Part shown: piece after piece, positions 8,059 through 54,386 of the stretch
Layout: each line of letters begins with the position of its first letter
Position numbering within the stretch: the stretch's first letter is position 1
Assembly (NCBI GenBank): GCA_026026165.1
Contig: JAPEUD010000006.1
Location: forward strand, 186,001-250,000
Reading direction: 5' to 3'
Length of the DNA stretch: 64,000 bases
Source of the DNA: Sarea resinae
Taxonomy: Eukaryota
Program-made: the position numbers and the translations under genes
The notes under the pieces: model-generated
What the model was told of the DNA's origin: nothing
Database searches by the model: none
What the model saw: only the letters and a program-made list of their open reading frames with translations

Positions 8059-8516
8059 TAGGCTGGAACGAGCATCCTGAAATGAGGATTCAGCATTTCA
8101 GAGTCTGCCAGAGGATTCTTGTCGATGTTATGGAGTGGTTCATTTCAGTATGTCAGTGGGGAGTAGTGGGGTGCGATTTGGTGATGTTTATCGGCCATCA
8201 CGTGCAAGTATTGCTTTCGGATTCAACGTTGTTAAGAGCTGTATCTTAAGCTACCTTATTTAGAATCACGAAATGAGTCATCTGAACTGATAATTCGTAA
8301 AGCTAACAAAATATAAAGTTTATAAAAAAGCAATTGTGCGTATTTGCCACACGGAACTATTGCATTTGGACTATTTGAAAGAATATGTATGCCACCTGGC
8401 TTAGGTCAGAAAAGAAGCCATTGCGCCCCGTCCGACCCGCTGAACGGAAGAATTGTAGTGTCGTTTCAAGGCCACCCAGTCAAAGAAATATCCCAAATTC
8501 ATTACCAGCCACTGAA

Positions 8517-9580
<1,064 letters not shown>

Positions 9581-16500: not shown

Positions 16501-17094
16501 TAAATCAGTCAGACGATGGCTAAGTAGGTAGCCTACGGCAGAGAAAAACACTCTACCGTTGTGCACTCCCTACTGCTCTTCACGCTTTTTTTTTTTTCAG
16601 AGACCGCGTATTTTGATAGGTTGACGGCATTTAGGAAGTGACCCGCTCCAAGAATCTCAATTGTTTTCCGACTATACCAGCAATACCGTATGAATTGGCC
16701 ACTACCGGGGTCCCGACTGCGAGTGATGGCGGCTCTCACTCCGCCTATCATACCCGCACAGGGACTTAAAGGAGGGTATTCTACCTCGCATGAGTCAAAG
16801 GATGCAATTTTCTCAAATAGATTCCATTCAGAAGTCTGGCAATGCATTGATCATCACATCTGTCTTCGTGTGCTTGAAAGATTAACTGCTTGCTTATTGC
16901 TGATTTGTTCATCTGCTTGATTGAGAATGCACCGTTGCTGAGGTCGAGCACTGCTGAAAGTGACGGGCGCAAGATGTGTCAGCAGGGTAGGCGGCGATAC
17001 CTTAATCGGCGAAATTTGATAGCTCCTGGGATACAAAGAATTAGGAACAATAGCAACGGCATCAAGGTGCCTTCAATGTCCTGGTATACTGCAC

Positions 17095-19052
17095 ATGCCA
17101 TTCCGTCTGAAAAACAAAAGGGCGCGATCTCAAGTACGTTTCATTCACCGGGTACCCGGTCATCCACCTCGAGATCAGAGTCCTTCCAATGCATTGAATG
17201 GTATCCTGTCCGACACTGGAAAATGGCAGCAGACCTCGAGCAAAATGCAAGATACTGAAGTCACTGGTCGCACCTTATTTCATGATCTGGATCCAGGCCC
17301 CGACTCGCCCTATTCTGTATCTGCCAGCTCCAACATGTTGCAAAAAGATTCCCTACTTGTACCAAAGGTGTTCTCGACGTGGCCGCCCATTCGGGACCCG
17401 TTAGTTACTGGAACTTCCGAAGCTCAGGATGAGACCGTGAATGAATGCCTGCCATTTCTCTCTGCCCCCGATGATCCTGACAGCTCTCTCGTGGACTTCA
17501 ATTTTCATGGAATACCAAGACTGGAACGTGAGAAGCACAAAGCCTTTCTGCATAACAGTCTTGGAAACCTGCCCGCGGGATTCGTTGCCGCTGATGCGAG
17601 TCGCCCATGGATGCTATATTGGGCCTTGTCTGGATTGCAACTTCTTGGAGAAGATATCTCGCGCTACCGCGAACGGTATGTACACTCAAAAATCGATTTG
17701 TGATTGCCAACAGTCATTGGGCTTTCCTCTACGAGAGACTAGGCACTGAACCTTCATAGGGTCGTATCCACTCTGACTCCCTTGCAAAACCCTGAAGGAG
17801 GTTTCGGTGGCGGTCATGGGCATATGTCCCACTGTGCTGCTTCATATGCGGCAGTGCTAAGTCTGGCTATGGTTGGAGGTGATGAGGCTCTAAACCTCAT
17901 AAATCGCAAGACTATGTGAGTAAGATTCATCGTAGGTCGTATCCTCCAACTAATGGTCAACAGGTGGAAATGGATTGGGGATCTGAAACAGCCAGATGGC
18001 GGGTTTCGGATGTGCGTTGGTGGGGAAGAGGACGTCAGGTAAGGCTTTTGTGAAAACCGTTGCGGTAGCTCGAGCTAACTCTCCCAGGGGAGCATACTGC
18101 TCAATGGTGATCATATCGTTGCTGAATTTGCCAATGGAGCTACCTCAAACCTCTACAGCAAGGACAGACGCCTGTGCTACGTTTCTCTCCGGGCTACCTG
18201 AGTATCTATCACGATGTACTATTTTGGGTCACTATGACACTAGGATTGTTGCTAACTCACTGCAGGTCAGAGCTTTGAAGGCGGCATTTCTGGTTCACCA
18301 AATACCGAAGCCCATGGCGCTTACGCTTTCTGTGCGCTAGCATGTCTCTGTATTATTGGCGAGCCTCACAAGATGATCCGAGAGTGCGTCTCTTCAGTGT
18401 CTATCTGCTTCTAGTGGCGTTACTGATTTGTTTTGAAAGATATCTCGATGTCGATCTTCTCGTTCACTGGCTCTCTTCTCGCCAATACGCGCCAGAAGGC
18501 GGATTCGCCGGACGTACCAACAAACTTGTCGACGGTTGCTACAGTCATTGGGTTGGCGGATGCTGGCCGCTCATCGAAGCAGCTCTAAACGGTCCAATCT
18601 CCACCGTCACGTCTACTCGACCTATTTGCGGAAGCCTTTACAGCAGAGAAGGCCTGATAAGGTACATCATGTGTTGTTGTCAGGGGACTCGAGGCGGTCT
18701 ACGAGACAAACCAAGCAAGTGAGTGACTTCTGCACCCTGATACATAATGACTAGAAATTTAATCAATCTCAGACGTGTGGATTCTTACCATTCGTGCTAC
18801 ACCTTGGCTGGCCTCAGTTCAGCACAACATTATTCTTTTTATTCGCCGAATGACCTTGGTATCGTCCATTCACCCCTGTCTGCGTCATTTCGTTGGGCCA
18901 GCTCTCGCACTATTCCGACTCCCACTGGCCAAACAGAGGAGCAATTATTTGATGAGGAGGACAGGGTTCAATTGATACACCCCATATATGTACTTCCCTG
19001 GGGAACTGCAGAGAGGACCCGAGCTTGGTATGAAGGAAAAACCGGATTCTGA
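17095..19052 (+). CDS. RAM1: Protein farnesyltransferase beta subunit
   Basis: DASRPWMLYW, GGFGGGHGHMSH, EEDVRGAYC, EAHGAY, GFAGRTNKLVDGCYSHW, GGLRDKP, DSYHSCYTLAGLS motifs across several exons. Start codon uncertain. Confidence 0.93.
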
Positions 19053-23847: not shown

Positions 23848-25449
23848 ATGGCATCCATTGAGGCAACCCATAGCCTCAGGCTCCAAGTAATCACACGGGT
23901 GACGACTGCTTTGAGTAGAAGAGCTGTCCCCCGCAGAGATTGGAACGTCTCTCTCTGTCGGACTTCTCCGAACGTGTCTGGGTTGGTTGCGAAACCCGCC
24001 GCGAACCCGCTACCAAGAAGACTTCATTCGACCACATCCAAATGCTACTCTAGCTCTTCCCACACCCAAGCGGCTCAGAAGCTCAATCAAAAGGGACAAG
24101 ATGCACAGGAGTCAGCTTTTGAAGATGCTATCGGGCAGGAGAAGGAGAAGCAAAAGCGGACGCCCTGGCATCGAGAAGGTCCTCAAACACCTCCAGTGAG
24201 AAGGCAGCGTTCAGCTGGTGCGATGACGAAAGGTATACCCCAAAATTACAAAACCAACACAATCGGCGAATCTCTGACTCTCGGACAGGAAAACTTCTTA
24301 CCACACCATCGCGCTTATTAAAGCTCATACTTCCCCTTGTTACGACTGATAAAAATTCCGATCGCAAAGATATAGAGCCATTAGCATTATTGGTACACCC
24401 ACAACAACCTTTATCGTACCTGGAACGCCTAATTCAATCTGAGCTGCCGACGATCAAGAAAGAAGACGGAGGCGAGAAGTTACCACAAATACATTTCAGG
24501 GCGGAGGATACGGAACAGGATGAGATCCGACCGAAGGAAAAGGCAGAGGACTTAGACGAAGAGTCAAGAAAGAGTTCTGACGAGTCCGGGAAAGCATCGA
24601 AGCCGGCCTCCAGCAACGCTCGTGAGCTGCGAGGAGGTCCAGGAGAAGGAGGCGTCGAGACGTATAGCGGGCTTGGTCATGAGGCAGAGGATCAAGACAG
24701 CCGCAGAAAGAGATTTGTACGCTGGTCATCCTCCACAGAGGTTGGGGACTTCATTCGCGATGCCGCTAGAGGCAAAGAATTTGCCGTGGAGATTGAAGGG
24801 GCCCCGAAGCCCATTTACGTCGGTGTCCCATCATTCGGTGACCGGACTCATTATTTGAGGACACGACTTCGGAAGACATCTAGAAAGCTTATGGATATGG
24901 CAAGCATCAAGGAAGAGTGCGACACGGCAGCACAGAAAGGAGGACAGCGGGTAGCCATGGCTGGCTTCGGTATATTAGTCAGTTGGTGGCTTATAGTATA
25001 CAGGCTCACATTCGAGACTTCTTATGGATGGGACACAATGGAGCCCGTGACGGTAAGCCCTTTTGCTAGACAGGCCTCAAGTGAACCCACTGACACTCGT
25101 CATATAGTATCTGGTCGGACTATCTACCCTAATGGGAGGCTATCTCTGGTTCCTCTACCACAATCGTGAAGTCTCTTACCGTTCCGCTCTCAACCTCACT
25201 ATAAGCCGGCGTCAATCTCGTCTCTATAAGACTAAGGGCTTCGACCTTCAAAGATGGGAGGCTCTTGTCGAAGAAGCGAATGCGCTGCGAAAGGAGATCA
25301 AGGCCGTTGCGAATGAATACGACGTCGACTGGGATGAAAAGATTGACGAGCAGGACCCAAGGGTCACAGAAGCGCTCAAAGAGGATCGGGAGGAAAAGAA
25401 GGAGAAGAATGGAAAGAAGAAAGGGGAGGACCAGGGTGATGATGAATGA
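23848..25449 (+). CDS. MCU: Mitochondrial calcium uniporter
   Basis: R/S-rich presequence, [18 protein letters not shown], two TM helices flanking the pore motif WDTMEPVTY. Introns 24233-24288 and 25053-25107. Confidence 0.92.
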
Positions 25450-30699: not shown

Positions 30700-31450
30700 A
30701 TTTCCCATCTACCCTACCCGGTGCTACTGACCCGGTTGAAAAGAAGGGCATGTGTGCTTCTAGACTACAGCTAGCAATGGAATGGATTTAGGGAATAGAT
30801 CTATCAAGGCCCCGTAAGAATAATTATCCACCAAGACATGATGCGTCAGCGAAGGAGATGTGGGAGAAATTAGAGAAACGATATACACATGTATCGCTCG
30901 CTGTTCGAGGCGACCTGATCCGGGAATTCATCCATCTCCACTATCGGGACTGCGTCGATGCCGCCGATTTTTGTCACAAGTTCAGCAGCCTAGTCTTCCG
31001 CCTCAAGAGAACTGGGTGGAAGGAGGATCATTGCAACGTATGCTTGCTGTTCCTAGCCAAGTTGTTCAGTTCCTTTGAGGCATGGCAAATCGTGAAACGA
31101 CACACCGAAAGTTTTGAGACGTTGAATCTGAATCGCCTCATGCGCGAACTCGAAGACGAAGCGCGCTACATCGAGTCAACTCGACCAGTTACCTTCTCTG
31201 GCGAGGCACGCACGAAGAAGGCAGCCAAGAAGAACAGCCCAGCCCGCCGGTCGCGCTATCAGGTCAAGAAGACCTGCTCACACTGCCGCAAGAACGGCCA
31301 CGTGGAGGCAAATCGCTGGATGAAGCATCCCCAAAAGAGGCCTGCTTAGTTCCGAGACGCAAGCAATGCTGCGAAAGCTCCTGACCAGGCCGGGTTCGCT
31401 GCGAGTACTGAGCCACACGGCCCAGTCCAAAGTGACAATATTCCTGTTCC
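30700..31450 (+). mobile_element. Ty1/Copia-type gag relic without pol
   Basis: SAKEMWEKLEKRY...LLFLAKL..SFEAW...LEDEARY is typical of Copia gag. Degenerate zinc knuckle CSHCRKNGHVEANRW..HP. Upstream part is broken by stops and frameshifts. Confidence 0.75.
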
Positions 31451-32901: not shown

Positions 32902-34646
32902 CTACACCAGCGGCGCGCCATTCGTGATATTCCCCGGCGGCCGGCTGGGATAGTCCCCATTGCAGGCGTAGTCAAAGTTGGCGAGGGCGACCGAGTCGGC
33001 CTGGCTGGCGATGAAGGCGTTGATCTCGCACCAGCCGTCCGTGCGCAGGCCGCACGGCGGCAGGCTCCAGCCGAGGGGGATGGTACGCTGGTTCATGACG
33101 AAGTGGACGTAGGTGGTGGGGGGGCTGGAGAGGTCGTAGACGGGGGAGGAGGTGGCGGTGCGGTTGGAGAACACGGCGTGCGGGGCGTGGATGATCTCGA
33201 TGTCGAGACGCGCGCCAAAGGGCTCGAGGTGGCTCACCGTTAGATTGCGGGGCACGATCCGGGTCGGGGGCAGGTATTGCGCGAACTGCGTGAGGCCGAA
33301 TGCCGTGAGGATCGACATGATGTTCGTGTCGTGGGAAAAGTCAAAGTAGAGGGCTTGGTTGAGCGGGAAGGTGGCCGTGCTGTTGTCCAACGTTGCGTTG
33401 TTCGAGGTCGCGTTGATGGGGGCCGGCAGCACATTTTGCAGGCGGGCGAGCACTTCCTGCACGTAGCCTATTCCAATCGCACGTCCCGTTGGGGAGCCAA
33501 AGGAGTCGGAGCCGTAAAAGGAGAGGTCGTTGGAGTACTCGAACCCTTCCCATTCGGCGTAGGTAAAGAGGTCGCAGAAGGCCGAGTAGCCCAGCGCAAC
33601 GGTTTCGTAGGGACACAGCGTCTGTGCGGCGTACGTGTCCGTGAGCGTCCAGTTATAGCCCGATACGAGGGCGCCGAGACGCGCGGTGGCATTGGCGAGG
33701 TAGATGGCCTCCCAGGTGGCCGTCGCGTTGGAGCCACCGGCCGACACGTACGTGTTGGAGTTGTTGCAGTTGTCATAGCCGGCAAGGCTGTTGTTGAAGC
33801 CGTCGGCTTCGATGATGACTTCCAGAGTGGCATTGTCGGTCCAGCCGAGGCCGAAGAAGCCGGCCATGAAGTTTTCGGCGCTGTGCAGCATACGGTCTTC
33901 AGTTGTCGTGCGGGCGATGATCTTGGAGCTGGTGTTGTAGAGGTGCCCGTATTGGTAGTAGTGGAGGATGCCTGAATTGAGAAGTCTGGAGTCATAGATT
34001 AGCTACCTGATATGCTCCTCGAATCAAATCCTAGACTACGCACTCGCCACGGCCGACAGGCACGAGGATCTCGGCGCCAAGTTGAAACTTCCAGTCGTTC
34101 AAGAACGAGAGCGCCCCCGTCGCATTCAAAGAACCCGCGGCCTTGGCGATGCGCTTTCCAAACTTGGCCACACTGCTGTCTGACGTGGGGTATCTGCTTC
34201 CGTGCCGATGAAGCATTTGAACCTGGGAGATGTTGGCGCCAGCAGGCAGGGGGTATTCATCGACGCCGAACCCGACGGGGTTTGGAAAGTAAGGACTGAG
34301 GTTGGCCATCAACTGAAAGATGCTCGCGTTGTTGGTGTTTCCCACGATGGGCTCGGCCGTCTCTAGTGGAGCATTGGCCACGAAGACCGGGGATCCAAAA
34401 GGCGCTGGGTTCGACTGCGCCAGGAATGGAGCGACGCCGGTAGGTGTTGGTCCTTGACTGTCATCAATTGCGGTCTCCACAGCAGAAGGCAAACATACCA
34501 GCAAAGATCTCAGGTGTGGTCTGAAAATAGTCCGGGACCGTCGTGGGGCTGCTGCTGGTGGTCGAGGTCGAGGTCGCTCTTTTATCCATGTAGGCTGCTC
34601 GTGCGCAGCCGGCAATGGCCAGCAGAAGAAGCTGAGGCCGTGTCAT
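32902..34646 (-). CDS. Secreted histidine acid phosphatase / 3-phytase
   Basis: Signal peptide MTRPQLLLLAIAGCARA, catalytic RHGSRYP and FSHDTN motifs, many N-x-S/T sequons. Introns at about 34498-34454 and 34045-33986. Confidence 0.92.
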
Positions 34647-35875: not shown

Positions 35876-38355
35876 TCAGCACTCATCGTTGCTTATATTC
35901 CCATCATCAAAGTCGACTTCCCCATAACCCTCATCATCGTAATCAGGATAGTCGCCATACTTTCGACCGATAGGAGAAGGACTCCCGAATGAGCTTTCGT
36001 GAGATGCCGCCAGACCAGGACGAGAACCAGGTTCGGGGCTCGGACTCAAACGTCGAGCCTGCATCATGACCTGTCTCTGCGTGAGAGACTGAATCTCGCC
36101 CTCAGCATCCAGTGGCAGGAAGAGATGCTCATGCGGAGGCTTGATCTCGTGGATAGCATGCCTGCTGATCAATGGACTCGTGAAGAGAACTTTCAAGACA
36201 ACATCGACGTCCTTGTCATCGGCTAGCTCTCGAAGCTTCCGAACTACGAAGCAGAGCTGGGCCTGCCAGCGTGTATGCTCGTACCATGAAATGCCATCGA
36301 TGACGCAGAATAGGACTGTACCGACGGCCAATTGCTTGGCTAGGTCCTTGAATAGCTGACACAGATGGTCAATCTCATGGCTCAGAATCTGCTCCTGCTG
36401 TCGCCGATGCTTGAGAAAGGACAGGTCAAAGTCCCTCAGGAAGAGGAGCTGTACAATAAGGCTTCTGACGAGTCCAGACGGGCTGCCCAGAGGATCTTCT
36501 GCCTCCGTGTGAAGGCCGCAGAAGAAGTGAATAGCAATGACGGGTTCTAAAGCTGATAGACTGTGGACCAGAGTCGCGCTCAATAATGACATAGGTGTAC
36601 ACCGTGCCAGTCCGTCGGAATCGGGTTCACCGTCGACTAGAAGCAGCTGAGGCTTCCGTGACTGAAACCACTCTTGAAATTTGGGTCGTCGTATGACCCA
36701 TTCGGCTCGACCTTGAGCCTGAGGTTTCATATCCCTCCCGCGCTTCAGTGATACCTCGATATCATGGACGGACGCTTCTGGGACAACCCCGAGGAGCTCG
36801 ATGAGCTGCTCTCGCGTGATAGAAGGTTTTTGAACGCTGTTGGACGACCCAATGCGTTTTAACTCTGTCTTCATTGACTCAATTTCTTTAAACCCTGGGC
36901 TGTATTAGTATTGAGAAGTGACTGGATGGGCAATACTGACAGAGGGCACTGAGAGTTTGATCATTGAAGAGGTTAAGAAGGTGGTTGAGGCCATCCAGTG
37001 ACGTTTGCATTGAACTCGTGGTGTTCACCACGGTGGATACGTCAGAGCGCATTCCCCGCATATCCTGCTCCATGTTTTGTACCACGAATTGGGTTCCGGC
37101 TGTATTAGCTTGAATATTGTCAACGCCGATTTCCATGTTCCCGAAGCCTGTCACTAGAGTCCCGACAGCTGATTCTGTTCTACCCACGGCAGATTCTGTT
37201 CTTCCCATTGAGGACTCGGTCCTGTTCACGGCAGATTCTGTTCGACTCATTGCGGATTCCGTCCGATTCACGGCCAATTCTGCCCTGCCAACTGCCGTTG
37301 CGGTCCTTCCTACAACATTTTCTGTCCTATCTGCAATGGCTTCTGTCCGCAGAGAGGAGGAGAAATGCAGGTATCTGATGTGGCCTTCCAGATCGTTGAC
37401 TTTCTTGTCAACCAAGGCGATCTTGGCCTCCAATGGCTGTGCATACAGCGGGCCCTTGACTAATGCCTTGATCTCTCTCCCTAAAGACGCTGAGCAAATT
37501 GCCAGGGCATACAAGACTCGAGGTTTGCTTACAACCGTCCCGCTCGACCAGCCACTTGATCATCCCTTCAATCGCACAGAGAATTGCCAGATATAGATCC
37601 TTGACCATCTCCCCCAGCTTGTCGTCCGATGGGCATTTCTCTCGGTAACGCTGGGCCTTGTCAATGATGCTGGGGACCCGTCCCAATGCATCTAGAATCT
37701 CCCCCCTCTTCTCGCTCACGGCAGTTGCGGCCTATCCTAGTTCAGCATGCGGCTATGGGCTAATGATATGGGTAGATGCTCACGGACCCCAAATATGAGC
37801 TTTAAACCCCCGCATAGCACAGATCCATAGTCCCCATCCGGAAGAAGTTTCAGCCATGGTGCGATGGCTGAGCCATATTCTCCCGTCACTCTAATCGCCT
37901 TCTTTCCAAAACCCATGACGCCCTTGGCCTCTTCATTGTATTTCTGCTCAGCATCTTTTGCTTCTCGGATCACATCATCCCATGTATATTTCTTGGAGAT
38001 ATCGAAGCTACCTCTCATCTTTGGCTTAGCCCTCTTCTGAAAGATGGCCATGACCTCGAGAAATTCATCTGTATGGGTACGCAAGCTGGGGTCACTGGGC
38101 AGATAAGCATGTTTCTGGGGTTCCTCGAGTTCCGTACAATCTTGGAATCCCCTCAGCTGTCGCTAAACGTGCAGAGGATTAAGCAAGAACTTACTCCAGA
38201 GGATCCTTCATCACGAATTCAGCTCGTTGATTGTCGTATCGCGCCGGAATATTGAGAGCTGGATGAACGCGTGCCGCATTTTCCGACAGCCATGCCGGAG
38301 CCAGCTCCTGGTAGTTGTCTCGGGAGACATGAGATGGTCGTGGAATAGCCGACAT
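35876..38355 (-). CDS. NACHT/NPHP3-N-like P-loop protein with degenerate Walker A, helical N-domain and coiled-coil repeats
   Basis: Multi-exon; first intron acceptor uncertain. WLKLLPDGDYGSVLCGGLKLIF N-domain; FQEWF..LLLVDG, IHFFCGLH, LVRSLIVQL, VLFCVIDGISWYE, KVLFTSP follow the fungal NACHT layout. No C-terminal repeat domain. Confidence 0.75.
37160..37350 (-). repeat. Coding 21-bp tandem repeat (about 9 RTESAVG-like heptads)
   Basis: RTEAIAD RTENVVG RTATAVG RAELAVN RTESAMS RTESAVN RTESSMG RTESAVG RTESAVG; GCAGATTCTGTTC recurs in the DNA. Confidence 0.85.
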
Positions 38356-40124
38356 ATCTGCAAAGACGCTGTAGTCACGTAGGCAAGCCGGGTCTCTTTG
38401 GGACCCGGTCGTATCAGCGCGGGGCCGTAATCCAGCTCACTTCAACTCCAAGTCAAATAGCGGTCGACATCGATGAGCGCGCACTGGTTGACGTTTTCTT
38501 CTGAAGTGCAGTCCCATGTAATAGAATGAGACGCTCGATGCATACACGGAAAGGGAAGTGGTGAGAGTAAGAGCGGCGACTGTTTTGATGATATACGGCT
38601 CGCAAGTGACCAGCCGTCGAGATGAATCTCGTAAACAGTGCCGCGAACGGCGCTCTTTCACATCGTCACTTGCTCCTTTGCATCTGCTCGGCGCCAGAGC
38701 CAATGGATCAACTCATGCCCTGGCTTGGTGACTGCTAGCATGACCCTTGACTGCGGATTACCGCGGATTACTGCGTAAGACTGCGCAAACCCTCTGCTCT
38801 AATAGATAACACACTGCGACCATTAAACGCAGGTAGTGCACCTAGAGGAACGTGGCTTAGACCGACCCGCTTGAGGGGTCAGAGCCCTCGACAGCTGGAG
38901 GTACTTGGTGCTTGGACTCGTTTCCGAGGGCGACTTGTGCCATCAAACGTCTACAGCGTACCCCGCCCCCCACCATGGATGAAGTTGGGCTGGTCTACTC
39001 CGGAGTACATTCGCCCTTAGGTACCGTAGCTTACCTTAGGCAGTACCTAAGCCATTGATCCAATTTGACATGACCTTAAGTAGTACTATGTAGTAGAGTA
39101 GTGGCTGGAGAGCAGACTCTACTCCGTACAGCGTCGAGACATCGTGCCACCACTCCTGGAGCGGGTCCTTCAGGCACTTCCAACACTTCCAACAAACCTT
39201 CGAGTTGCTCGTCTGCAATTGGTCGCTCGAAGAAGGGTCGCAGCAGGAGATCACGGATCATTATTGATGGGCTTCAGGGATTGTGGCAGGTCGCTGGCCT
39301 CCCAACCCCCTGATCCATCTCCCGTCAATAGTTGTCAATCATTCCAATAGTATTCGTGCGGTGGACTTTAGGCAACAGCAGCAGCAACAGCAACAACAAC
39401 AGCCGCCTTCCGAGAGCATTTGTCAGAAGCCATCTGCTTCGTGCGACGACACCCTTTCGAGGTTGTGATCTCCTGGGTCAATGTCCGGTGTAGCCGTCGA
39501 CCTTGTGCAGCGAAGTCGACGCCGACACTCACCTCACCGTCGAAGTGAAGTGGAGTGGCTCGAGTGCCAGGCGCCTTGGTCATCCAGTGCCTTCATCATG
39601 GCTGTGGGTGGATGGATGGGAGATGTGGAGAAGATGCCTTGACAGGACATCATCTACGAATGTACTTCATAGTGGCACTCCCCGGGCGGTGTCTCGGGTC
39701 CCTCGGTCGCTAAATCACAGAAGGCCCGAGAGGGCGTCCCGGGCCCCCTTGGGTCCTCAACCAGGGTTGAGCAGCCGAAAGACAACATAGCGCATACCGC
39801 GGGAGCCAGGGACTGAATACATCCTTAGTATACGTAGTAGCTGGAGGTGACGATGGACTGGATGCCAGCGAGAGTTTCCAGCTGATATAGTACATCTCCG
39901 TTGGAGGGAGAGGAGGCAGGGACACGAGAGATACAGGGCATGAAGGACAGACCTCCACTCCTCCATCCCTCTAGGGCTCGTTGACTCCAGACTCAAGGCC
40001 GGTTGGCTGCATCACACAAGGTTTCCCTGATGTTCATCATTCTTGAGTAAGGTAGGTGTTCCATCCAATCTCACTGCCCATGTAACGAGCACAATGGTGC
40101 CGTACGGACGTACCCATGGTGCAC

Positions 40125-40155
40125 GGTAGGTAGGTAGGTAGGTAGGTAGGTAGGT
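40125..40155. repeat. (TAGG)7 microsatellite
   Basis: Read directly. Confidence 0.9.
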
Positions 40156-40879
40156 CCTAAGGTATACTTCGTATGTACACCTTACTCCTCGTACCTCAAT
40201 CTAGACTCCAGCTGTTATTCCCGCCACTTGAGCACCCCAAAGTCTCAAGGGCGGAGGGAACCCTGGTACCACTTCTGCAGTATGTCAGAGCTGGACAGTT
40301 CTGTGTAAAACCCATGCAGCCATGAGTTCCAACACTCGCCTGCATGCTGATCCCACTGTCCCACTGTTGCTAGCCATATCATGTCGCGTGCGAGTCCTAC
40401 ATAGTATGCCATGTCTGCTTCCCTTGGCATCCCGGATGCAGACCAGGAGTCGTCGTCGTGGGCGAAGACCTCCCGGGCTGAAACGGTCGATCCGCCGATG
40501 CTGTATGAGGCAAGGCTGAGGGCTCTTCCCTCGCCCAGACGTACATCTGGAGAAAGTCTTAAAGATCATCATCCGTCATCTTTTGCTTCTACTTCTACTT
40601 TTCTTGGCTACCGTGCTTGCTTGTGTGATCGCCGCCTTTGTGGTTATTCGTTGGTCCCGAAGTGATTGGAATTCCCCGGCGCTGGCTTGCCTTCTTTCTC
40701 CCACAAGGTGGTGCTGAAGCGTCCCGTAGCTTCCTGAGTCCAAACGGACCCTGGATCGTTGAGGCGCCGCTATCGAGCGGAGGTAAGTCTTTCGCTTTAC
40801 AGCTCACCCACAAAGCTTCGAATGTGCTGACGGGATTCGTAAGTTTACGACTGAGAGCTTGCCACCCCGTCGTAGAGCT

Positions 40880-43800
40880 ATGGCTACCTTGATCGCCTCA
40901 AGTCCTCCCATGCACCTCCCCTCGGAGCCCCACCCAGGTCCGGAGAAGATGGAAACGTCATCTCTGCCTCCAGTCAACACCAGCCTTGATGATCACCCTG
41001 TGGACAAGCCTGCATCTGGCACTGGGAGCTCTCCTGTACATTCAGAGTCATCGCGAAGTCTGAGGACTACCAGCAGTCGTTCGGATCCTGAGCCAGGCGA
41101 TGAACGCTCAGGGAATCTCGCGGAAGTTCAAGAGATAGAACGTCCAGCAGAAAATGACGTCCCGCGTCCGCCTACGCCTATTACTAGGTATCCCAGTGTC
41201 GAACGCCTGGGTCCACCGGGAGAAGCAAAGCAACTCAAAAGCTACCTAGAGTATATTGAGACCATGGAAGATCGCGTGGCTCGGATCGAGAAGAGGCTCA
41301 GGAAATTGGACGAGGATGGTGTAGATCTCAAGAAATCGGACAAGAAACCTCCGAAACATATTCCAGTGATCCCGAAGATGCGTCGTGTGAGATGGTTTGA
41401 GTTCAAGAATAAATTTTCCGAGGACGATAAACCTTATGCGATCGAGCTTCTCACTGGGCCAGCCAGATACTTCTGGCAGCTCGCTGCCGACAAGAAGAAG
41501 AACAAAAGGATGATCGCCTCGGGCGAACAGCAAACAGAGGATGCAAAGGAACCAACCCTTCCGGCAGACAAGAGCCCCTCACTGAAGGAGTTACCAGAGC
41601 GAATTCGAATCAATTCAATGCCTATTGTCACCCTTATGGGAGAGATCAGTTCAGAAGATTGGGCACTCGAGCCAACGCTAGTCCTGAGACCTTTCAAAAT
41701 CTTGATATACCATGAGAAAGCCATCAGGGATCACCTGAGCAAGCTGGAGACTAAGTGGGGTGCTATCGAGAAGGAAGAGACTGAGAAAGCCAATGCCGAA
41801 TCGACCGACTCCAAAAACGATGAGCCCAGTCCAGTCAACCTCAACTCACCAAAGGACATTCCTTCGAGTGCATTCCACGAATCGCCGAGGCAAACATCTA
41901 GCACTTTGACCCCATCTGTCTCTGCGGTTGAAGTCAATGCAGTGCCAGAAGTCAAACCAAAACTGCCTGACCAACAAGCAACGCCTACCGAGAACGCAAC
42001 CAGTCCTGCAGACACTGACGGTGGCGCCCGATCGGACCCCAGTAACGCTAATGAGACTCCCAACTTTCCCAAGTCTCCCAAGTCTCCTAAAATGGCACCA
42101 ACAACGGATGAATTGATTGACAGTGTGGAAGCGCTGAGGGACATTCGCTGTCTTGTAGAGTTTATGGACAACGAAGTCTTTCCGGTGGCGAACCGCTTCA
42201 AAGATGGGTCGTGTCGAACAATTCGCTTCAATGAGCTGTGGCACCTCTACAAGCCGGGCGATGAGGTGTTTGCTCCTCTGGGCAAGAAATCAACCTCAAC
42301 TGCGAAGTCGGACGCGTCAACAAAAGGATCCGCCGCCAGGCATACCGAAACGGTCTTGCCAGGGACGCAAAAAACTCATAAAAGATATCAATCTTCCTGG
42401 CGGGTCTTATCAACAGCGAATGGAAGGACTCGTCTTTCTGCAGAAGACGACGAAGGCGACGGAAAGCCGAAGCAGCCCGTCGATGCCTTTTTGGTGGATT
42501 GCTATTATCTTGATTTTGATGGTAAACGCGTCCGGCCCATCACACATACATTCGCAATCCCACCCTTTGAAGAGGAAAGAGACGTCACTTCGCTTGAAAT
42601 ATATCCCTGGCAATTTGTGGACAGCGCGGCGGAGATCAGAAACGACCTGAAAAAAAGAGGCGAAGCTTTCCGGAGATTTGCAACGTCCAAACACAGTTAT
42701 TGTAGCGGACCAAGCCTTCTCTGCCATCCTTGCGGATGTCCTATCTTTGAATTTGATAAGAAGCATGTCGAAAATATCGAGAGCGAGGTAATAGTCGATT
42801 TCAACGAAGCGCTTCAATCCGATCGAGATTGGGTCTTGAATACGTCCCTGGCGCCGCTTTCTTCGGAGACGAAGGAGCTGAATGAGACTTATCCGAAATT
42901 CATCTGGAAGGATCACGATACAAAGGAGATTGACCGGGAAGTAGATGAGTTCATGCATTATGATGATTATATGGATAGAGTACGATCAAGGGAATTTTCG
43001 AACAAGGAACCGTTTTTGAAGGACGACAATGAGCCAGCGGACCCGGATGCGATCACCGATATCGAGTTCCGTGACAAAGACATCATCCTTCTTCCCAATA
43101 GGGTCTTCGCATTTGTCCTCAAAACCAGAAAATTCGGTACGGTGTTCTTTTTCCTCAGTCTTTCCTGGATGCTCACAGTATACGATAGCACTTGTTAGAG
43201 TTGAGGATCTCCGAGCCATCAAACCGCAATTAGATGGGTTTAATAATTTGAAATTACAGCCTGGCCACAAGACAATGGTACAGGCGCTGGTAAGGAGTCA
43301 CTTTACGGAAAAGGTCTCCAAAATGTCGGAGGGAGAGGAAGCCTTGGAATTCGATCTCGTTCGCGGCAAGGGTGAGTGCAGTAAACATTTCTATCAGGTC
43401 AATGGACTGCATGACTTGGTTTGAAATGAAGCTCAAACAGACCAACATTGGGGCCTCAAAACGGTCCTTTATAGTGCCAACCAGTCATATACTGACAAAG
43501 ATTCTAGGTAAGGGACTTATCGTGCTCCTGCATGGGGCACCTGGGACTGGCAAAACCTCGACAGCGGGTAAGTTCGAGTCAATGATAGATATATATATTC
43601 TGGATACTGATTTTGAGGTCAAGAATGTGTTGCTGCGGCTAATGGCAAGCCTTTGTTTCCCATAACCTGCGGTAAGTTCAACTAAACACATTTTCTGGGG
43701 AAAGTATCTCATGAGTATCACAGGAGATCTTGGCCTTTCGGCTCCAGACGTTGAAAGAGAACTCAACGACATATTCCACCTTGCCCAACAGTGGGACTGC

Positions 43801-44903
43801 GTGCTCCTGCTCGACGAGGCCGACGTCTTCTTAGCACAGAGAACCAAAACCGATCTCAAGCGTAACAGTCTCGTGTCTGGTATGCAAGCAGTCCAAGCGC
43901 AGATAGTCCATATACTGACTACCCAGTTTTCCTCCGTGTCCTTGAGTACTATACTGGAATACTGTTCCTAACCACGAACCGAGTGGGAGCATTCGATGAG
44001 GCGTTCAAATCTCGTATCCACATGAGTTTATATTATCCGCCATTGGACGAAGCCCAGACGTACGCCATTTGGGAGATGAATCTAGATCGAACCGTAAAGA
44101 GAAAGCAAGGCATGATGGATTGTGAAAAGGGCGACATCATGAATTTCGCAATAGCCCATTATAGAGATACCTTTCCGACGGAATCGAACTGGAACGGAAG
44201 GCAAATACGAAACGCCTTCATAACGGCCTCGAGCTTGGCAGAATACGAGAAGACCAAGGAAGACAAGCGCCGAAAAGCCGAATCCAAGTCGGACGTTCCA
44301 TTCGGCCTCGCGAAGCTGGAACGGAAACACTTCGTGACTGTCGCTCAAGCATCTCAGGATTTCGACGATTACATTGCGAAGACGATAGGCCAGACAGACG
44401 CAGAGCGAGCGCTCAACAGCTCCGAACGAGCTGACAATTTCCGATCGTCGCGGATCGCCTACCAGCAACGCGATCAAGCGATGACATTCCGGGGAGGACT
44501 CCCTCCAGTTAAGCAGAACCAGTATCAGTGGCCCCAGCAGGCCAATACTGGCGAGCCTTCTTATCCTGCAATGCAGCAGCTGGGTCCACCACAAGTGCAG
44601 CCATCGGTCCCGGGAACGACACCTCCTATGGCACAGCGCTTTGCACAAGGGCAACCAGGGCAACCAGGTCCGCCATCTGAATACCCATACAAGCCGGTCC
44701 AACAACCCGGCCCTTCTCCTCAATGGCCACAGTCATCTATCCAGCACAACTCGGAGTCGATGTCGTACCAAGCACAATCTTCGCAGGCTACTAACGCTGG
44801 TGGTTCGCGATGGGTTCCAGGATCCCCATCGGGCCGGCGCCCCATTGACAACCTGCCTCGGCAAGAAAGTCGACGAGGGTACTACGAGGACGACGACTTC
44901 TAG
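40880..44903 (+). CDS. Large fungal AAA+ ATPase with long N-terminal domain and P/Q-rich tail
   Basis: LPERIRINS..RPFKIL, IRFNELWHLYKPGDEV, YLDFDG, FDLVRGKG|KGLIVLLHGAPGTGKT (Walker A), CVLLLDEADVFL (Walker B), LTTNRVGAFDEAFKSRIH (sensor 1/Arg finger), WNGRQIRNAF (sensor 2). About 5 introns at 43137-43927; probable 5'UTR intron from 40783. Confidence 0.9.
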
Positions 44904-45601: not shown

Positions 45602-47062
45602 ATGTCTGGAGGTAAGTCAATAGAGGAGCATCTGGAGCTGGTAGACCCAGACACTGATCGTCGACGGTACGTCTAGCTCAACAGAGGCTATCACAGGTGG
45701 CCAGCCACCTCAGCTCGTCCGAATCGGACATCAAGCGCGGTCGGGAGAGCGTCCTCAGCAAAGGCCCCGATGATGTACGTCTGATAGCTCCTAGAGACTC
45801 GTGACCTTTCCTGACATCCTCCAGATCGTCATCACCGCTGCCCTCCGCACGCCCCTCACCAAGGGCGGCAAAGGCAGCTTCAAAGACACGGCAGCGGCCG
45901 ACCTCCTCCATGGAGCTTTCAAAGCTCTGATCTCACGTTCGGGCATCGATCCCAAGCTCGTTGAGGATATAGCAGTGGGCACCGTCCTTGCCCCCGGAGG
46001 TGGCGCCACCGAGTTTCGCGCTGCCGCTCTCGTAGCAGGCTTCCCCGAGTCCACGGCCGTCAAAGCTCTCAACCGACAATGCAGCAGTGGGCTTCAAGCG
46101 TGCGTCGACATCGCCAACGAGATCCGCTCGGGCATGATCGAGATTGGTGTTGGCGCCGGTGTCGAGAGCATGAGCTCGCAATACGGGTGAGTCTCGCTAC
46201 ACCTCTTCACTCCATGCTCGAAATATTCTCACCAGAATCTCTCTAACCTCGGTCTTAAAACAGACCTGGCGCTGTGACCGAATTCTCCGAACTTCTCGAA
46301 TCTCACCCCGAGTCGAAAAACTGCAAAGTCCCGATGGGCGTGCTCTCGGAGAAGATGGCACAAGACCGGCACATCTCGCGCGCGGACCAAGACGCCTTCG
46401 CCGCGTCGTCGTACCAGAAAGCCGTCAAAGCGCAAGCGGCGGGTCTCTTCGATGCCGAAATCGCCCCCCTTACAGTGAAGTGGACGGACCCGAAGACGGA
46501 CGAGGAGAAAGAGATCACCGTGTCAAAGGACGACGGGATCAGAGACGGAATCACCGCCGAGAGCCTCGGCAAGATCAAACCGGCCTTTTCAAAGACCGGC
46601 TCCATCCACGCGGGAAACGCGTCGCAGATCTCCGACGGCGCCGCCGCGGTGCTCCTCATGAAGCGCTCGACGGCCGAGCGACTGGGCCAGCAGATCATCG
46701 GCAAATACGTGACGGCGTCCGTGGTGGGCGTGCCGCCACTACTAATGGGCATCGGGCCGTGGAAAGCCATTCCCGTGGCGCTGGCCCGAGCCGGCCTCGC
46801 CAAGGACGACGTCGACCTCTTCGAGATCAACGAGGCCTTTGCCAGCCAGTGTCTGTGGTGCATGCGCGAGCTGGGCCTCGACGAGCGCAAGGTCAATCCC
46901 AAGGGCGGCGCCATTGCCTTTGGCCATCCGCTCGGCTGCACGGGCGCCAGGCAGGTCAGCACGCTGATGACGGAGCTCGGCCGCACGGGTGGCCGCGTCG
47001 GCGTCACCAGCATGTGTATTGGGACTGGGATGGGCATGGCCGCGGTTTGGGTCAAGGAGTGA
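45602..47062 (+). CDS. POT1: Peroxisomal 3-ketoacyl-CoA thiolase with PTS2
   Basis: Exons 45602-45611, 45677-45774, 45825-46186, 46265-47062. PTS2 RLSQVASHL; NRQCSSGL, EINEAF, GHPLG and CIGTGMG motifs. Confidence 0.95.
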
Positions 47063-52255: not shown

Positions 52256-54098
52256 TCAGAGCTCAGGCTTCTCCCACACGTCGCGCGTGATTTTCATGAT
52301 GGCGGATTGCTTGTGTGGAAACGCTATCTCTTTGACCTTGAAGAAACCTATGCTCTGGAGATAGGATATGAGTCTAGTAAGATCGAATTGATTAGCAAAA
52401 AAAGGTATACCATCAAAGGAGAAGAAAGAAAGTCGAGCGACAAATGCAAAAAGGATCCGGAGGAGGCAAAAGGACAAGGGAGACTAACTTCTCATTATCG
52501 ACTCTCGGTTCCAGCCATACGGCATTAGTCCTATAATCCGCCGTAAAGAAATGATGCACCACTGCACTCAGCCAGACCTTGACTCTATGCGGTCCTCTGA
52601 ACTCTTCCTCTCCAACAAGCACATGTACACCCTTGTCGTGTTCGCCTGCCTCGCCGCCCAAGTACCGCCCCAGGATATCTTCTTTGACCCAATATAGCTC
52701 AAAGTAGCCAAAGGGCTTGCCGTCCCAGCAGCCAATGACGGGGAATGAATGACGGTTGGAGAGGTTGGCACGGAGAAAGGCTTCTTGGTGGCTTCGCGGC
52801 CCGGATTCGCCCCAGAAGGCGGAAACTCGAGGGTGGTTCATCCAGCGATGGAGGAGCTCGACGTCGCAAGGGGTCTGTGATGATGCATTGGAATTGGTAC
52901 TGTCGGTGTTGATTGGAGCGGTAGTGCTGGGAGTAACGCTGCTTGGAGGGAGGGAGATGACCGAGGCCGGGCGGTTGGAAAGGGCGGAGGGGGATGACGA
53001 GGAGGGCAGCATGCTCGTTGTGTGGTGGTGATGATGATGGGAGACGACTCCATTGTGGGCCGGAGATGTGGATGACAGCGACGCGACACGGAGAGACAGG
53101 TATTGACCTAAGCTGGGTATGTAACGCGTGTAGAAAGTCTCGCCCTGACGAGGTGGTTTTGGTCGGATAGGGTGACGAATGCCGTCTGTGAAAGTGTACT
53201 GAAGGGGCGGAGGAGGGAAGTATGTGGGAAGATGACTGCCCGATTCAAAGGGGCCCGAGGGACTAGGTGCCGGCGTCCAGAGGCCGTGCGAGATGACTTC
53301 GGCTTGACTGTCGGATTTTGGGGATGTTGCATTCTCCACGCTTGGAGAGTTCGGACGAGAGGGTAGCGGGGAGGCGGCATTGGAGTAGGGGGAGCCAGAT
53401 TGATAGGGAGATTGATGGCGAGGGGAGAGCGTGAAGAGAAAGATGCGTGGATCAAGCTGCCAGAATTGGCGTCGGCTGATGAACATTTCCGACCATCCTT
53501 CTGCCGTTCGTTCGTCCGGATCGCAGCCCACGGAAGCGTCCTCGCTGATCACCAAGCCCATCCTTTCGAGTTTCTGCAGCAGGTTTCTCCCCTTGAAGAT
53601 GCCCTCGCGCTTGATGTTGATCCTCCACTCTCCCCTCGGCTTTCCCAGATCCGACGTCGTCGCAGACGCGCTGTTATACAATCGCGTGTCTGGTTCGGGC
53701 TGGTGAAAGTACCAGTACAGCGTGGCCCAGAGCATCATGGCGATCTGACGGGTGGGGGAGGTGGCCGGCTTGAAATCGCTACTGCTGGGGTTGGAGATGG
53801 ATGACATAAAGAGGCTGTCATTGCGGAGGGTAGGCTTCTGAAAGCGATAGATCTGCGGCCTCTTTTGGGGAGGTAGTGATGGCGAAGCCGGTTGATCGGG
53901 CGAGGACGCTGTAGTCTCGACCTCGGCGGGAGCAGGCTGCTCTGGTGCATTTTCTTCCGAGTGCAGAATCACGGTCCAGCCTGGTGGGAAGATGGAGTGG
54001 TGGGTACTCAGGTTGTTAGACTTGAAGAACAGACCGCCGAAGACGGGGGAGACGGTGATGGTCTGTCCGTTGGGAAGGTGAACGAGTGACGGGGCCAT
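52256..54098 (-). CDS. sidL: Siderophore N5-hydroxyornithine acetyltransferase (IucB/Acetyltransf_8; SidL-like)
   Basis: [69 protein letters not shown]. One intron at about 52489-52374. Confidence 0.85.
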
Positions 54099-54386
54099 GA
54101 TCTGTGTGTGGAGTGCCCTCCAAACACGCAGGCCAAGAAGAAGTGAAGGAGATGAAGAATTGGGAGGATAGGAGGATAGGAGGGTAGGAGGGTATGAGGG
54201 TATGAGGGCGTGAGGGCGTGGATCACCCCGCAAAGTGGAAGTGCTCAAGGTAAGGTATGAAGGTACGAAGTCGCAGTGGAGTTGTAGAGCAAGGTGACTA
54301 CTCTACCTACTTCCCCTCCTCCGTTCGGACTTCAGCCTTCAGCCTCTACCTCCTTTAGGCAGCCTTCAGCCTCTCGCATTGATGAC

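Follow-up and report, generated by a model that had tools for sequence, protein, structure and literature searches.

Do two genes that leave one spacer in opposite directions work as a unit, or do they merely stand side by side? The question is raised by a locus of Sarea resinae (Sareomycetes), which we analysed within a window of 64,000 nucleotides; all positions below are window positions. Two genes lie there head-to-head on opposite strands, with consecutive locus tags. M1819_005575, on the minus strand, encodes a protein (P0001) related to fungal NOD-like receptors (NLRs), and M1819_005576, on the plus strand, encodes an AAA+ ATPase (P0009). We give a probability of roughly 0.6 to the reading that filamentous ascomycetes possess an old, co-inherited two-gene module, of which this pair is one copy and in which an NLR-derived protein and a dedicated AAA+ ATPase would act together. 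The evidence behind it, all of it observed, is the domain content of both proteins, the loss of the P-loop throughout the minus-gene family, the head-to-head adjacency, the lack of other conserved neighbours and the congruence of the trees. The genes and their spacer are as follows.

35876..38355, minus strand: NLR-like gene, P0001 = M1819_005575, 741 amino acids; ATG at 38355, stop at 35876-35878; the public protein maps exactly
38355-38195, 38094-37788, 37731-37533, 37480-36941 and 36894-35876 (stop included), minus strand: the five exons of this gene, with GT-AG introns
38356..40909, no strand: divergent intergenic spacer of about 2.5 kb, presumed bidirectional promoter, with only short open reading frames and microsatellites
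40910..44903, plus strand: AAA+ ATPase gene, P0009 = M1819_005576, 1216 amino acids; the public protein maps onto the window, stop at 44901-44903
40910-43136, 43189-43371, 43508-43567, 43624-43671, 43724-43879 and 43927-44903 (stop included), plus strand: the six exons of this gene, with GT-AG introns

In terms of gene models, the product read from the window is identical, letter for letter, to the public M1819_005575, and matches of the family hidden Markov model (HMM) span all five minus-gene exons. For the plus gene, the public model starts at the ATG at 40910, with an alternative in-frame ATG 10 codons upstream, at 40880. The spacer contains no open reading frame of 130 or more amino acids, no tRNA and no Rfam family, and its reading frames have no homologue in the related metagenome loci. 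An earlier note, made from the DNA alone, had described a divergent pair with ATGs at 38355 and about 40880 and no clear gene between, and these coordinates agree with it.

Recurrence of the pair and apparent shared history of the two families

We searched the JGI metagenome contigs with the minus-family profile A1 and kept 10 kb on each side, which gave 14 loci, 9 of them non-redundant by DNA identity. In 7 of the 14 (L001, L002, L008, L009, L010, L011 and L013) the opposite strand carries an AAA+ homologue upstream. Among the non-redundant loci with enough upstream DNA, all five have the head-to-head AAA+ partner; L004, L005, L012 and L014 end at most 1.25 kb upstream of the first NLR-like match and are uninformative. 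The gap between the first detectable HMM matches of the two genes is 1.0 to 2.9 kb.

No ATPase gene was found downstream of the NLR-like gene in any metagenome locus, and the remaining flanks, about 30 kb summed by hand, hold no further copy of either family. The other open reading frames of the window have no homologue in these loci, and no other reading frame is common to the non-redundant ones. As judged by these searches, the pair is the only conserved gene content there.

As for named genomes, we compared 30 minus-family representatives with 23 + 120 listed ATPase relatives, and 12 genomes occur in both sets. In nine of them the two genes have consecutive locus tags and contigs of equal size:

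Sarea resinae: NLR-like M1819_005575, AAA+ M1819_005576
Circinaria calcarea: NLR-like Q9187_004777, AAA+ Q9187_004778
Cirrosporium novae-zelandiae: NLR-like M1834_009504, AAA+ M1834_009503
Watsoniomyces obsoletus: NLR-like M1823_005680, AAA+ M1823_005681
Boeremia exigua: NLR-like OPT61_g6490, AAA+ OPT61_g6491
Phylliscum demangeonii: NLR-like M1826_000266, AAA+ M1826_000265
Bogoriella megaspora: NLR-like M1820_006915, AAA+ M1820_006916
Elasticomyces elasticus: NLR-like LTR66_011427, AAA+ LTR66_011426
Xylaria curta: NLR-like NUW58_g1940, AAA+ NUW58_g1941

These nine genomes span six classes of Pezizomycotina (Sareomycetes, Lecanoromycetes, Xylobotryomycetes, Lichinomycetes, Dothideomycetes and Sordariomycetes). 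The two proteins of Fusarium mexicanum are each encoded on a contig of 193,815 bp, and the AAA+ tag was not seen. Several genomes (Cirrosporium, Elasticomyces, Phylliscum and Bogoriella) contain more than one copy. The earlier note had offered the pair as a candidate two-gene system, with co-occurrence across genomes as a check. The adjacency recurs in the five informative loci and the nine named genomes while the other neighbours change, and this supports a conserved unit, not a chance neighbourhood.

The two families also appear to have diversified together. Over 8 pairs, the matrices of p-distances have a Mantel correlation of r 0.81, a value reached by 4 of 10,000 shuffles; distances between pairs go up to 0.8 in one family and 0.7 in the other. 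Quick maximum-likelihood trees of 15 pairs, with low support on some branches and with the metagenome loci entered as segments spliced by profile, share 7 of 12 internal splits, which none of 10,000 label shuffles reaches. Tree congruence, another check named in the earlier note, is thus found. The groups common to both trees disagree with taxonomy: of the two Lichinomycetes, Watsoniomyces joins the Dothideomycetes and Phylliscum falls elsewhere, and one Dothideomycete pair clusters with Sordariomycete pairs. This pattern suggests old paralogous lineages in which both genes were duplicated or moved together.

A shared bidirectional promoter, or chromatin alone, might keep the genes together, with products that are co-regulated and independent in function. 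Every verified case is indeed head-to-head with a short spacer, a layout typical of shared promoters. Yet the adjacency has outlasted p-distances of 0.8 and 0.7 and six classes while all other neighbours changed, and the pairs appear to have split into deep lineages as units. Such persistence probably exceeds what promoter sharing usually preserves in these fungi, and we consider this explanation improbable.

An NLR derivative without the canonical P-loop

The minus-strand protein consists of the following parts.

37443..38093, minus strand: N-terminal helical domain, Goodbye/DUF7708-like, residues ~55-235 (Pfam, ESM-Atlas and AlphaFold2 helices)
36848..37433, minus strand: antiparallel coiled-coil hairpin, residues 239-418 (AlphaFold2 helices 239-319 and 353-418); the range contains the 46-nt intron 36895-36940
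36032..36814, minus strand: degenerate NACHT-type nucleotide-binding domain (NBD), residues 430-690 (Pfam NPHP3_N; predicted local distance difference test, pLDDT, >90)
36587..36634, minus strand: former P-loop site, DGEPDSDGLARCTPMS, residues 490-505, read directly
36296..36298, minus strand: D602 of FCVIDG, the kept Walker-B aspartate; 148 of 155 family sequences have Asp here

The NBD is recognised by the Pfam model NPHP3_N (PF24883) over residues 466-642, with 46-48 bits against a cut-off of 24.8 (E ~1e-12). The AlphaFold2 model of P0001, built on a 102-sequence alignment, has a mean pLDDT of 77 and is composed of a helical N-terminal region (residues 10-230), the coiled-coil hairpin and an alpha/beta domain (430-690, pLDDT mostly >90). 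Residues 432-667 of this model were compared by VIA-align with 48,161 PDB representatives. The best match is Avs3 (Z 12.7, rmsd 3.5, 187 residues aligned), followed by archaeal Cdc6 (Z 12.1; Cdc6/ORC about 12), ZAR1 (Z 11.1), CED-4 (Z 10.1) and Apaf-1 (Z 9.5). The best structural neighbours are therefore the nucleotide-binding domains of signal transduction ATPases with numerous domains (STAND) and of initiator ATPases. Foldseek with the whole model gave weak ORC/Cdc6 rows at E 2e-3 or worse, VIA-align being clearer, and a family-profile sequence search of the PDB returned coiled-coil noise and no NBD match.

At the P-loop site P0001 reads VDGEPDSDGLARCTPMS (also given as DGEPDSDGLARCT) and not GxxxxGK[ST]. 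Past the NBD, the model has no helical or winged-helix arm: one short helix (675-683) is followed by disorder to residue 741, and the protein ends about 50 residues beyond the domain. Among repeat families (WD40, ANK, TPR, HEAT and LRR), none was found in P0001-P0008 at E <=0.1, nor in 60 family representatives at E <=0.001.

The N-terminal region presents a different picture from the one first drawn. DUF7708 scores 16.3 bits in P0001, below its cut-off of 25, and 27.3 bits in the Circinaria orthologue P0002. In the ESM-Atlas, Goodbye (PF17109), DUF7708 or NACHT_N is present in every one of the 30 nearest named clusters, the best of which scores 0.94, and UniRef labels two minus-family members "Fungal STAND N-terminal Goodbye domain-containing protein". 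Against solved folds this region matched generic helical bundles and none specifically. P0001 thus reads as sensor-less and not effector-less, apparently keeping the N-terminal domain type of fungal NLRs. The earlier note had seen a NACHT scaffold with no GxxGxGK[ST] and no WD40, ANK or TPR sensor repeats. The profile and structure-prediction checks bear out the scaffold, the directly read site and the family-wide census bear out the missing motif, and the Pfam scan together with the early end of the protein bears out the missing repeats. The description "effector-less", on the other hand, appears to be wrong, residues ~55-235 probably forming a Goodbye/DUF7708-like domain.

Two further details concern the same protein. 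A tandem repeat of 21 bp / 42 bp at 37171-37282 (3.5 and 2.3 copies; 65-82% matches) encodes RTESAVx heptads, which sit at the low-confidence tip of the coiled coil (residues ~296-345) and are absent from aligned homologues; the tip may be lineage-specific and length-variable. Ahead of the helical domain, residues ~25-50 (38206-38283, exon 1) carry the motif HPxxxxPxxFDxQRAxF, kept in 6 of the first 8 homologues and modelled with a pLDDT of 82-95 and two short strands.

Is the missing P-loop a local accident? Among 1.84 billion cluster representatives, a minus-family profile made from eight homologues matched 3310 proteins at E <=0.001, 2211 at E <=1e-10 and 937 at E <=1e-30. Full-length members have about 600-790 amino acids, and the family is also present in Orbiliomycetes, Pezizomycetes and Aspergillus niger (An01g02260). 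The Pfam scan of the 60 representatives (E <=0.001) found NPHP3_N in 43 and DUF7708 in 6.

Motifs and columns were counted in 155 sequences (147 listed representatives plus P0001-P0008). The pattern GxxxxGK[ST] occurs anywhere in only one. At the lysine-equivalent column (n=154) the most common residues are R (71), K (36) and N (11), the loop ahead of it is longer than a P-loop and variable across the family, and a few members still read SGKT. Other columns are kept: besides D602, these are an acidic residue at +6 (148/155), K637 (149/151), H531 (145/154), C528 (142/154), R546 (138/154) and Q551 (142/155). The sensor-1 position after beta-4 reads TSP in these observed columns, where we take TSR to be the usual NACHT motif. 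The loss of the P-loop is thus, as far as this census goes, a trait of the whole family and not local decay. Because it is family-wide while other columns stay conserved, we read the family as a constrained, sensor-less NACHT-fold derivative without a canonical P-loop, and not as a decaying gene.

The same counts bear on two other explanations. The NACHT-like domain could be a working nucleotide switch with a non-canonical loop, in effect a minimal true NLR, with the ATPase as its downstream target or helper. The Walker-B aspartate and the acidic residue at +6 (148/155 each), a basic residue at the lysine-equivalent column in 107/154, Ser/Thr two positions on in 148/154 and the few SGKT members would fit such a switch. 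However, 154 of the 155 sequences are without GxxxxGK[ST], their loop is longer than a P-loop and varies, TSP stands in place of TSR, and no winged-helix arm is there to pass on a nucleotide-dependent change, which leaves this explanation with a small share of the probability. A chance adjacency or an annotation artefact, with the minus gene as a decaying pseudogene, has the missing P-loop in its favour and nothing else. The frame is open over five exons and identical to the public model, the AlphaFold2 model is confident, and 937 cluster representatives at E <=1e-30 have the same degenerate loop; the recurrent adjacency speaks against chance. We regard it as very improbable.

The AAA+ partner and the surroundings of the pair

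The plus-strand protein is divided as follows.

41216..43135, plus strand: folded N-terminal region of the ATPase, residues 103-300 alpha/beta and 399-742 beta-rich (AlphaFold2)
42203-42619, plus strand: DUF7025, residues 432-570 (Pfam, 74.5 bits)
43522..44036, plus strand: AAA ATPase core, residues 809-928, exons 3-6 (Pfam AAA, PF00004, 65.7 bits)
44043..44387, plus strand: AAA_lid_13, fungal AAA+ lid, residues 931-1045 (Pfam, 60.4 bits), with the WNGR motif and R983

With DUF7025, AAA and AAA_lid_13 in this order and all above the Pfam cut-offs, P0009 is a typical member of its family. Its motifs, whose names (Walker, sensor-1, arginine of the second region of homology) follow the AAA+ literature, are Walker A GAPGTGKT, Walker B LLLDEAD, sensor-1 N909, R921 and R983. 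In 81 relatives K819 and T820 are kept in at least 90%, D870, E871, N909 and R921 are invariant, and so are W980, N981, G982 and R983. R921 aligns in sequence to the arginine of the GR-F-D of VAT. The closest solved sequences belong to the classical clade of AAA proteins: VAT, Rix7, fidgetin-like 1, p97 and Msp1 (E 3e-9 to 1e-6). PADLOC matched TRIP13 at 31 bits and IetA at 43 bits, both weak and over the generic AAA core only. The plus gene reads as a catalytically intact classical-clade AAA+ ATPase, and the complete Walker A and B, sensor and arginine-finger motifs that the earlier note had listed are present and either invariant or kept in at least 90% of the relatives.

The AlphaFold2 model of residues 1-742 has a predicted template modelling score (pTM) of 0.71 and 381 residues with pLDDT >=90, residues 1-101 and 310-390 being disordered. 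Foldseek against the PDB gave nothing at E <=0.001 (best 0.19) and the best VIA-align match is a single helix at Z 4.5; as the model is multi-domain, this null result does not show a new fold.

Two side observations concern relatives of this protein. P0195, P0197, P0220 and P0221 (1464-2011 amino acids; Xylariales, Magnaporthales and Apiospora) carry DUF7025-AAA-lid twice; a fusion of the AAA+ with an NLR-like part was considered and rejected, these long relatives being tandem duplications instead. The model of P0011 (Circinaria calcarea Q9187_004778) is without the Walker A stretch and reads LLHGAPECVAES. What is missing matches exon 3 (60 nt) in the window gene, so that a micro-exon was probably overlooked in annotation and nothing was really lost.

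The spacer and the neighbouring regions contain these further features.

39372-39403 and 40125-40155: two microsatellites of the spacer, (GCAACA)n and (GGTA)n respectively
32905-34642, minus strand: histidine acid phosphatase gene, flanking the pair on the minus-gene side
45795-47059, plus strand: thiolase gene, flanking the pair beyond the plus gene
30792-31346, plus strand: copia-type long terminal repeat (LTR) retrotransposon gag fragment (Retrotran_gag_2, E 6e-10)

The pair had also been placed near a block of transposable-element relics. The copia gag fragment does exist, but the acid phosphatase gene stands between it and the pair. Elsewhere in the window there are ordinary housekeeping or metabolic genes: 17023-18719 encodes a prenyltransferase subunit, 24123-25166 a mitochondrial calcium uniporter and 52416-54302 an Acetyltransf_8 GNAT protein. 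A BRAP2/RING/zf-UBP gene (5780-8097, minus strand) adjoins a polyubiquitin gene (8520-9245, minus strand).

Proposed joint action, and relation to known systems

How might the two proteins act together? The first keeps a NACHT-type fold and, apparently, a Goodbye/DUF7708-type N-terminal domain. Gone from it are the canonical P-loop and the sensor-1 arginine, together with the sensor repeats and the helical and winged-helix arm, and a long coiled-coil hairpin has been gained. The second, transcribed divergently from the same spacer, is an intact classical-clade AAA+ with a large family-specific N-terminal region (DUF7025), and in the proposed mechanism it would supply the nucleotide-dependent switching that the degenerate NBD can probably no longer perform.

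Two directions are conceivable. The ATPase may hold the NLR-like protein disassembled, or dismantle its assemblies, and so act as a brake, as TRIP13-like ATPases do on the HORMA adaptors of the cyclic-oligonucleotide-based antiphage signalling system (CBASS). Alternatively, it may load, assemble or activate the NLR-like protein on cue, perhaps a cue sensed by its own N-terminal region. In both, the output would run via the Goodbye-like domain, whose counterpart in bona fide fungal NLRs is held to target membranes and cause cell death. The NLR-like protein would then be an adaptor or substrate of a remodeller, with a possible role in non-self recognition or cell death. A role in conflict or regulated cell death fits the NLR ancestry, the number of copies and the deep lineages of paralogues better than housekeeping, and we infer it for the module on these grounds.

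As for interaction, a complex prediction (P0001 425-695 with P0009 425-1060), run without controls or family alignments, scored 0.00 and speaks neither for nor against binding. Each of the two proteins has an acidic-aromatic C-terminal tail, …DFDDGNISNDEC in P0001 (35879-35940, minus strand) and …GYYEDDDF in P0009 (44840-44900, plus strand). The last 20 residues have a mean acidic count of 4.6 in 102 NLR-like and 4.7 in 81 AAA+ proteins, against about 2.7 and 3.1 expected from composition, and the tails are net negative by at least 3 in 52/102 and 37/81.

These tails, frequent in both families and reminiscent of docking motifs, would also suit a housekeeping module. There the NLR-like protein, as scaffold or adaptor, would bring the ATPase to a cellular structure such as a membrane, an organelle or the cytoskeleton, where it would serve quality control. 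The coiled coil and helical N-terminal domain resemble scaffolding proteins, their helical-bundle matches (Z 8-11) being generic, and in the window the pair has ordinary metabolic genes (acid phosphatase and thiolase) on either side. Multiple copies in several genomes, deep lineages off taxonomy and NLR-derived domains are, by contrast, features of conflict or immune families, and we think a housekeeping role unlikely.

Several observations weigh against joint action of the pair. The Goodbye-like assignment of P0001 is made from a sub-threshold Pfam match and a language-model look-alike search. The profile-profile comparison (hhalign) of the two family alignments found no shared motif (best probability 0.3%). 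The basic and Ser/Thr residues still kept at the degenerate loop, counted above, leave room for non-canonical nucleotide binding by the NBD. In Lobaria immixta and Lepidopterella palustris the NLR-like and the listed AAA+ proteins are on different contigs, so not every member adjoins a listed member of the other family; these cases may be non-cognate paralogues or unpaired members. Head-to-head orientation was verified in the window and the metagenome loci, and the other eight named genomes contribute adjacency of annotated genes. Of 8000 candidates scored for the very large AAA+ family, at least 4758 reach E <=1e-20, and its members may have other partners or none.

Finally, the pore-loop-1 site of P0009 (residues 837-843, ~43663-43734, spanning the intron 43672-43723) reads ITCGDLG, without an aromatic: the position of the K-W-V-G of VAT reads G-L-S/CGDLG. 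C839, G840, D841 and G843 of this site are invariant or kept in at least 90% of the 81 relatives, and the non-aromatic loop thus appears as a hallmark of the plus-protein family. Such a loop makes classical polypeptide threading doubtful, and with it remodelling by threading in P0009; within the proposed mechanism it would favour clamp or switch action instead.

A bolder form of the proposal, which we put forward tentatively as the less probable of the two, is a "split NLR". A Goodbye-like executioner and a dead NACHT/coiled-coil scaffold for oligomerisation would reside on one protein and the ATP-driven switch on a separate AAA+, with sensing perhaps via the DUF7025 N-terminal region of the latter. 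It would be an ancient, Pezizomycotina-wide immunity or cell-death device, missed by NLR catalogues that require Walker A or repeats.

Among known systems, the fungal NLRs of NWD/HET-E type, which combine NACHT with a Goodbye-like N-terminal domain, are surveyed in PMC4986451, PMC9815663 and PMC12258605. According to bioRxiv 10.1101/2025.09.29.679196, current InterProScan assigns the NPHP3_N model to most fungal NACHT proteins, and PMC9815663 counts the Goodbye type among fungal NLR effectors of a superfamily with an MLKL-like four-helix bundle. P0001 is like these proteins in the Pfam model of its NBD and, probably, in the superfamily of its N-terminal domain. It differs in having no Walker A, no WD40, ANK, TPR or HEAT repeats and no arm after the NBD, and in the 180-residue coiled-coil hairpin between N-terminal domain and NBD; its family further differs in the AAA+ neighbour at all informative metagenome loci. 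Since P0001 lacks Walker A, arm and repeats, we class it as an NLR derivative and not as an NLR.

The amyloid-signalling clusters of NLR and effector (NWD2/HET-S, sigma and PP motif systems), as treated in the available parts of PMC9815663 and PMC3321046, are alike in being conserved two-gene clusters with an NLR-family gene beside a functional partner. That partner is a small protein of HeLo, HeLo-like or lipase type, and one short amyloid motif is common to it and the N-terminus of the NLR. In our pair, in contrast, the partner is a 1200-residue AAA+, hhalign finds no shared motif, and the NLR-like member has an N-terminal domain of its own.

In bacterial CBASS, Cap6 (a TRIP13/Pch2-like AAA+) occurs with Cap7/8 HORMA adaptors, as described in the accessible part of bioRxiv 10.1101/694695. 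An AAA+ encoded beside a non-enzymatic adaptor and controlling its assembly state offers a functional analogy for the mechanism proposed here. The differences are that our locus has no HORMA fold, that the partner is a degenerate STAND domain, that the TRIP13 match (31 bits) falls below IetA, and that the system is eukaryotic. Compared with the DUF7025/AAA/AAA_lid_13 family of fungi, the plus gene shows no structural difference; the conserved partner is what is new. Head-to-head NLR pairs of sensor and helper are also found in plants, for example RGA4/RGA5 and RRS1/RPS4. They are similarly divergent from a shared promoter, with one non-canonical member, but both plant partners are NLRs, whereas here one NLR-derived gene is joined to a classical-clade AAA+.

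Our literature search found no paper describing an NLR-like/AAA+ pair, and stopped short of the supplementary NLR-neighbour tables of PMC9815663, which start from proteins matched by Pfam NACHT or NB-ARC whose N-termini are short. It also found no literature on DUF7025, DUF7708, AAA_lid_13, PF22942, PF23232, PF24809 or An01g02250/60/70. Fungal NLR surveys, bioRxiv 10.1101/2025.09.29.679196 among them, select on the Walker A motif or C-terminal repeats, as far as their available text states. Requiring GxxxxGK[ST] or such repeats, they would exclude the minus family, and the pair would flag a class of NLR relatives filtered out by current surveys.

Fungal NLRs are numerous, and a handful have a known mode of action. 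To our knowledge, the known two-gene clusters of fungal NLRs all work by amyloid templating, so a conserved gene pair linked to NLRs in another way would be something new. Recurrence across many distantly related filamentous fungi points to such an undescribed two-protein module. It ranges from Sordariomycetes to lichen-forming classes and includes the tractable Fusarium and, for the minus family, Aspergillus niger. If the reading of joint action is true, the pair would show how a STAND scaffold can endure after losing the nucleotide switch of its own, and it would give a first functional handle on DUF7025, DUF7708, AAA_lid_13 and a very large family of fungal AAA+ proteins.

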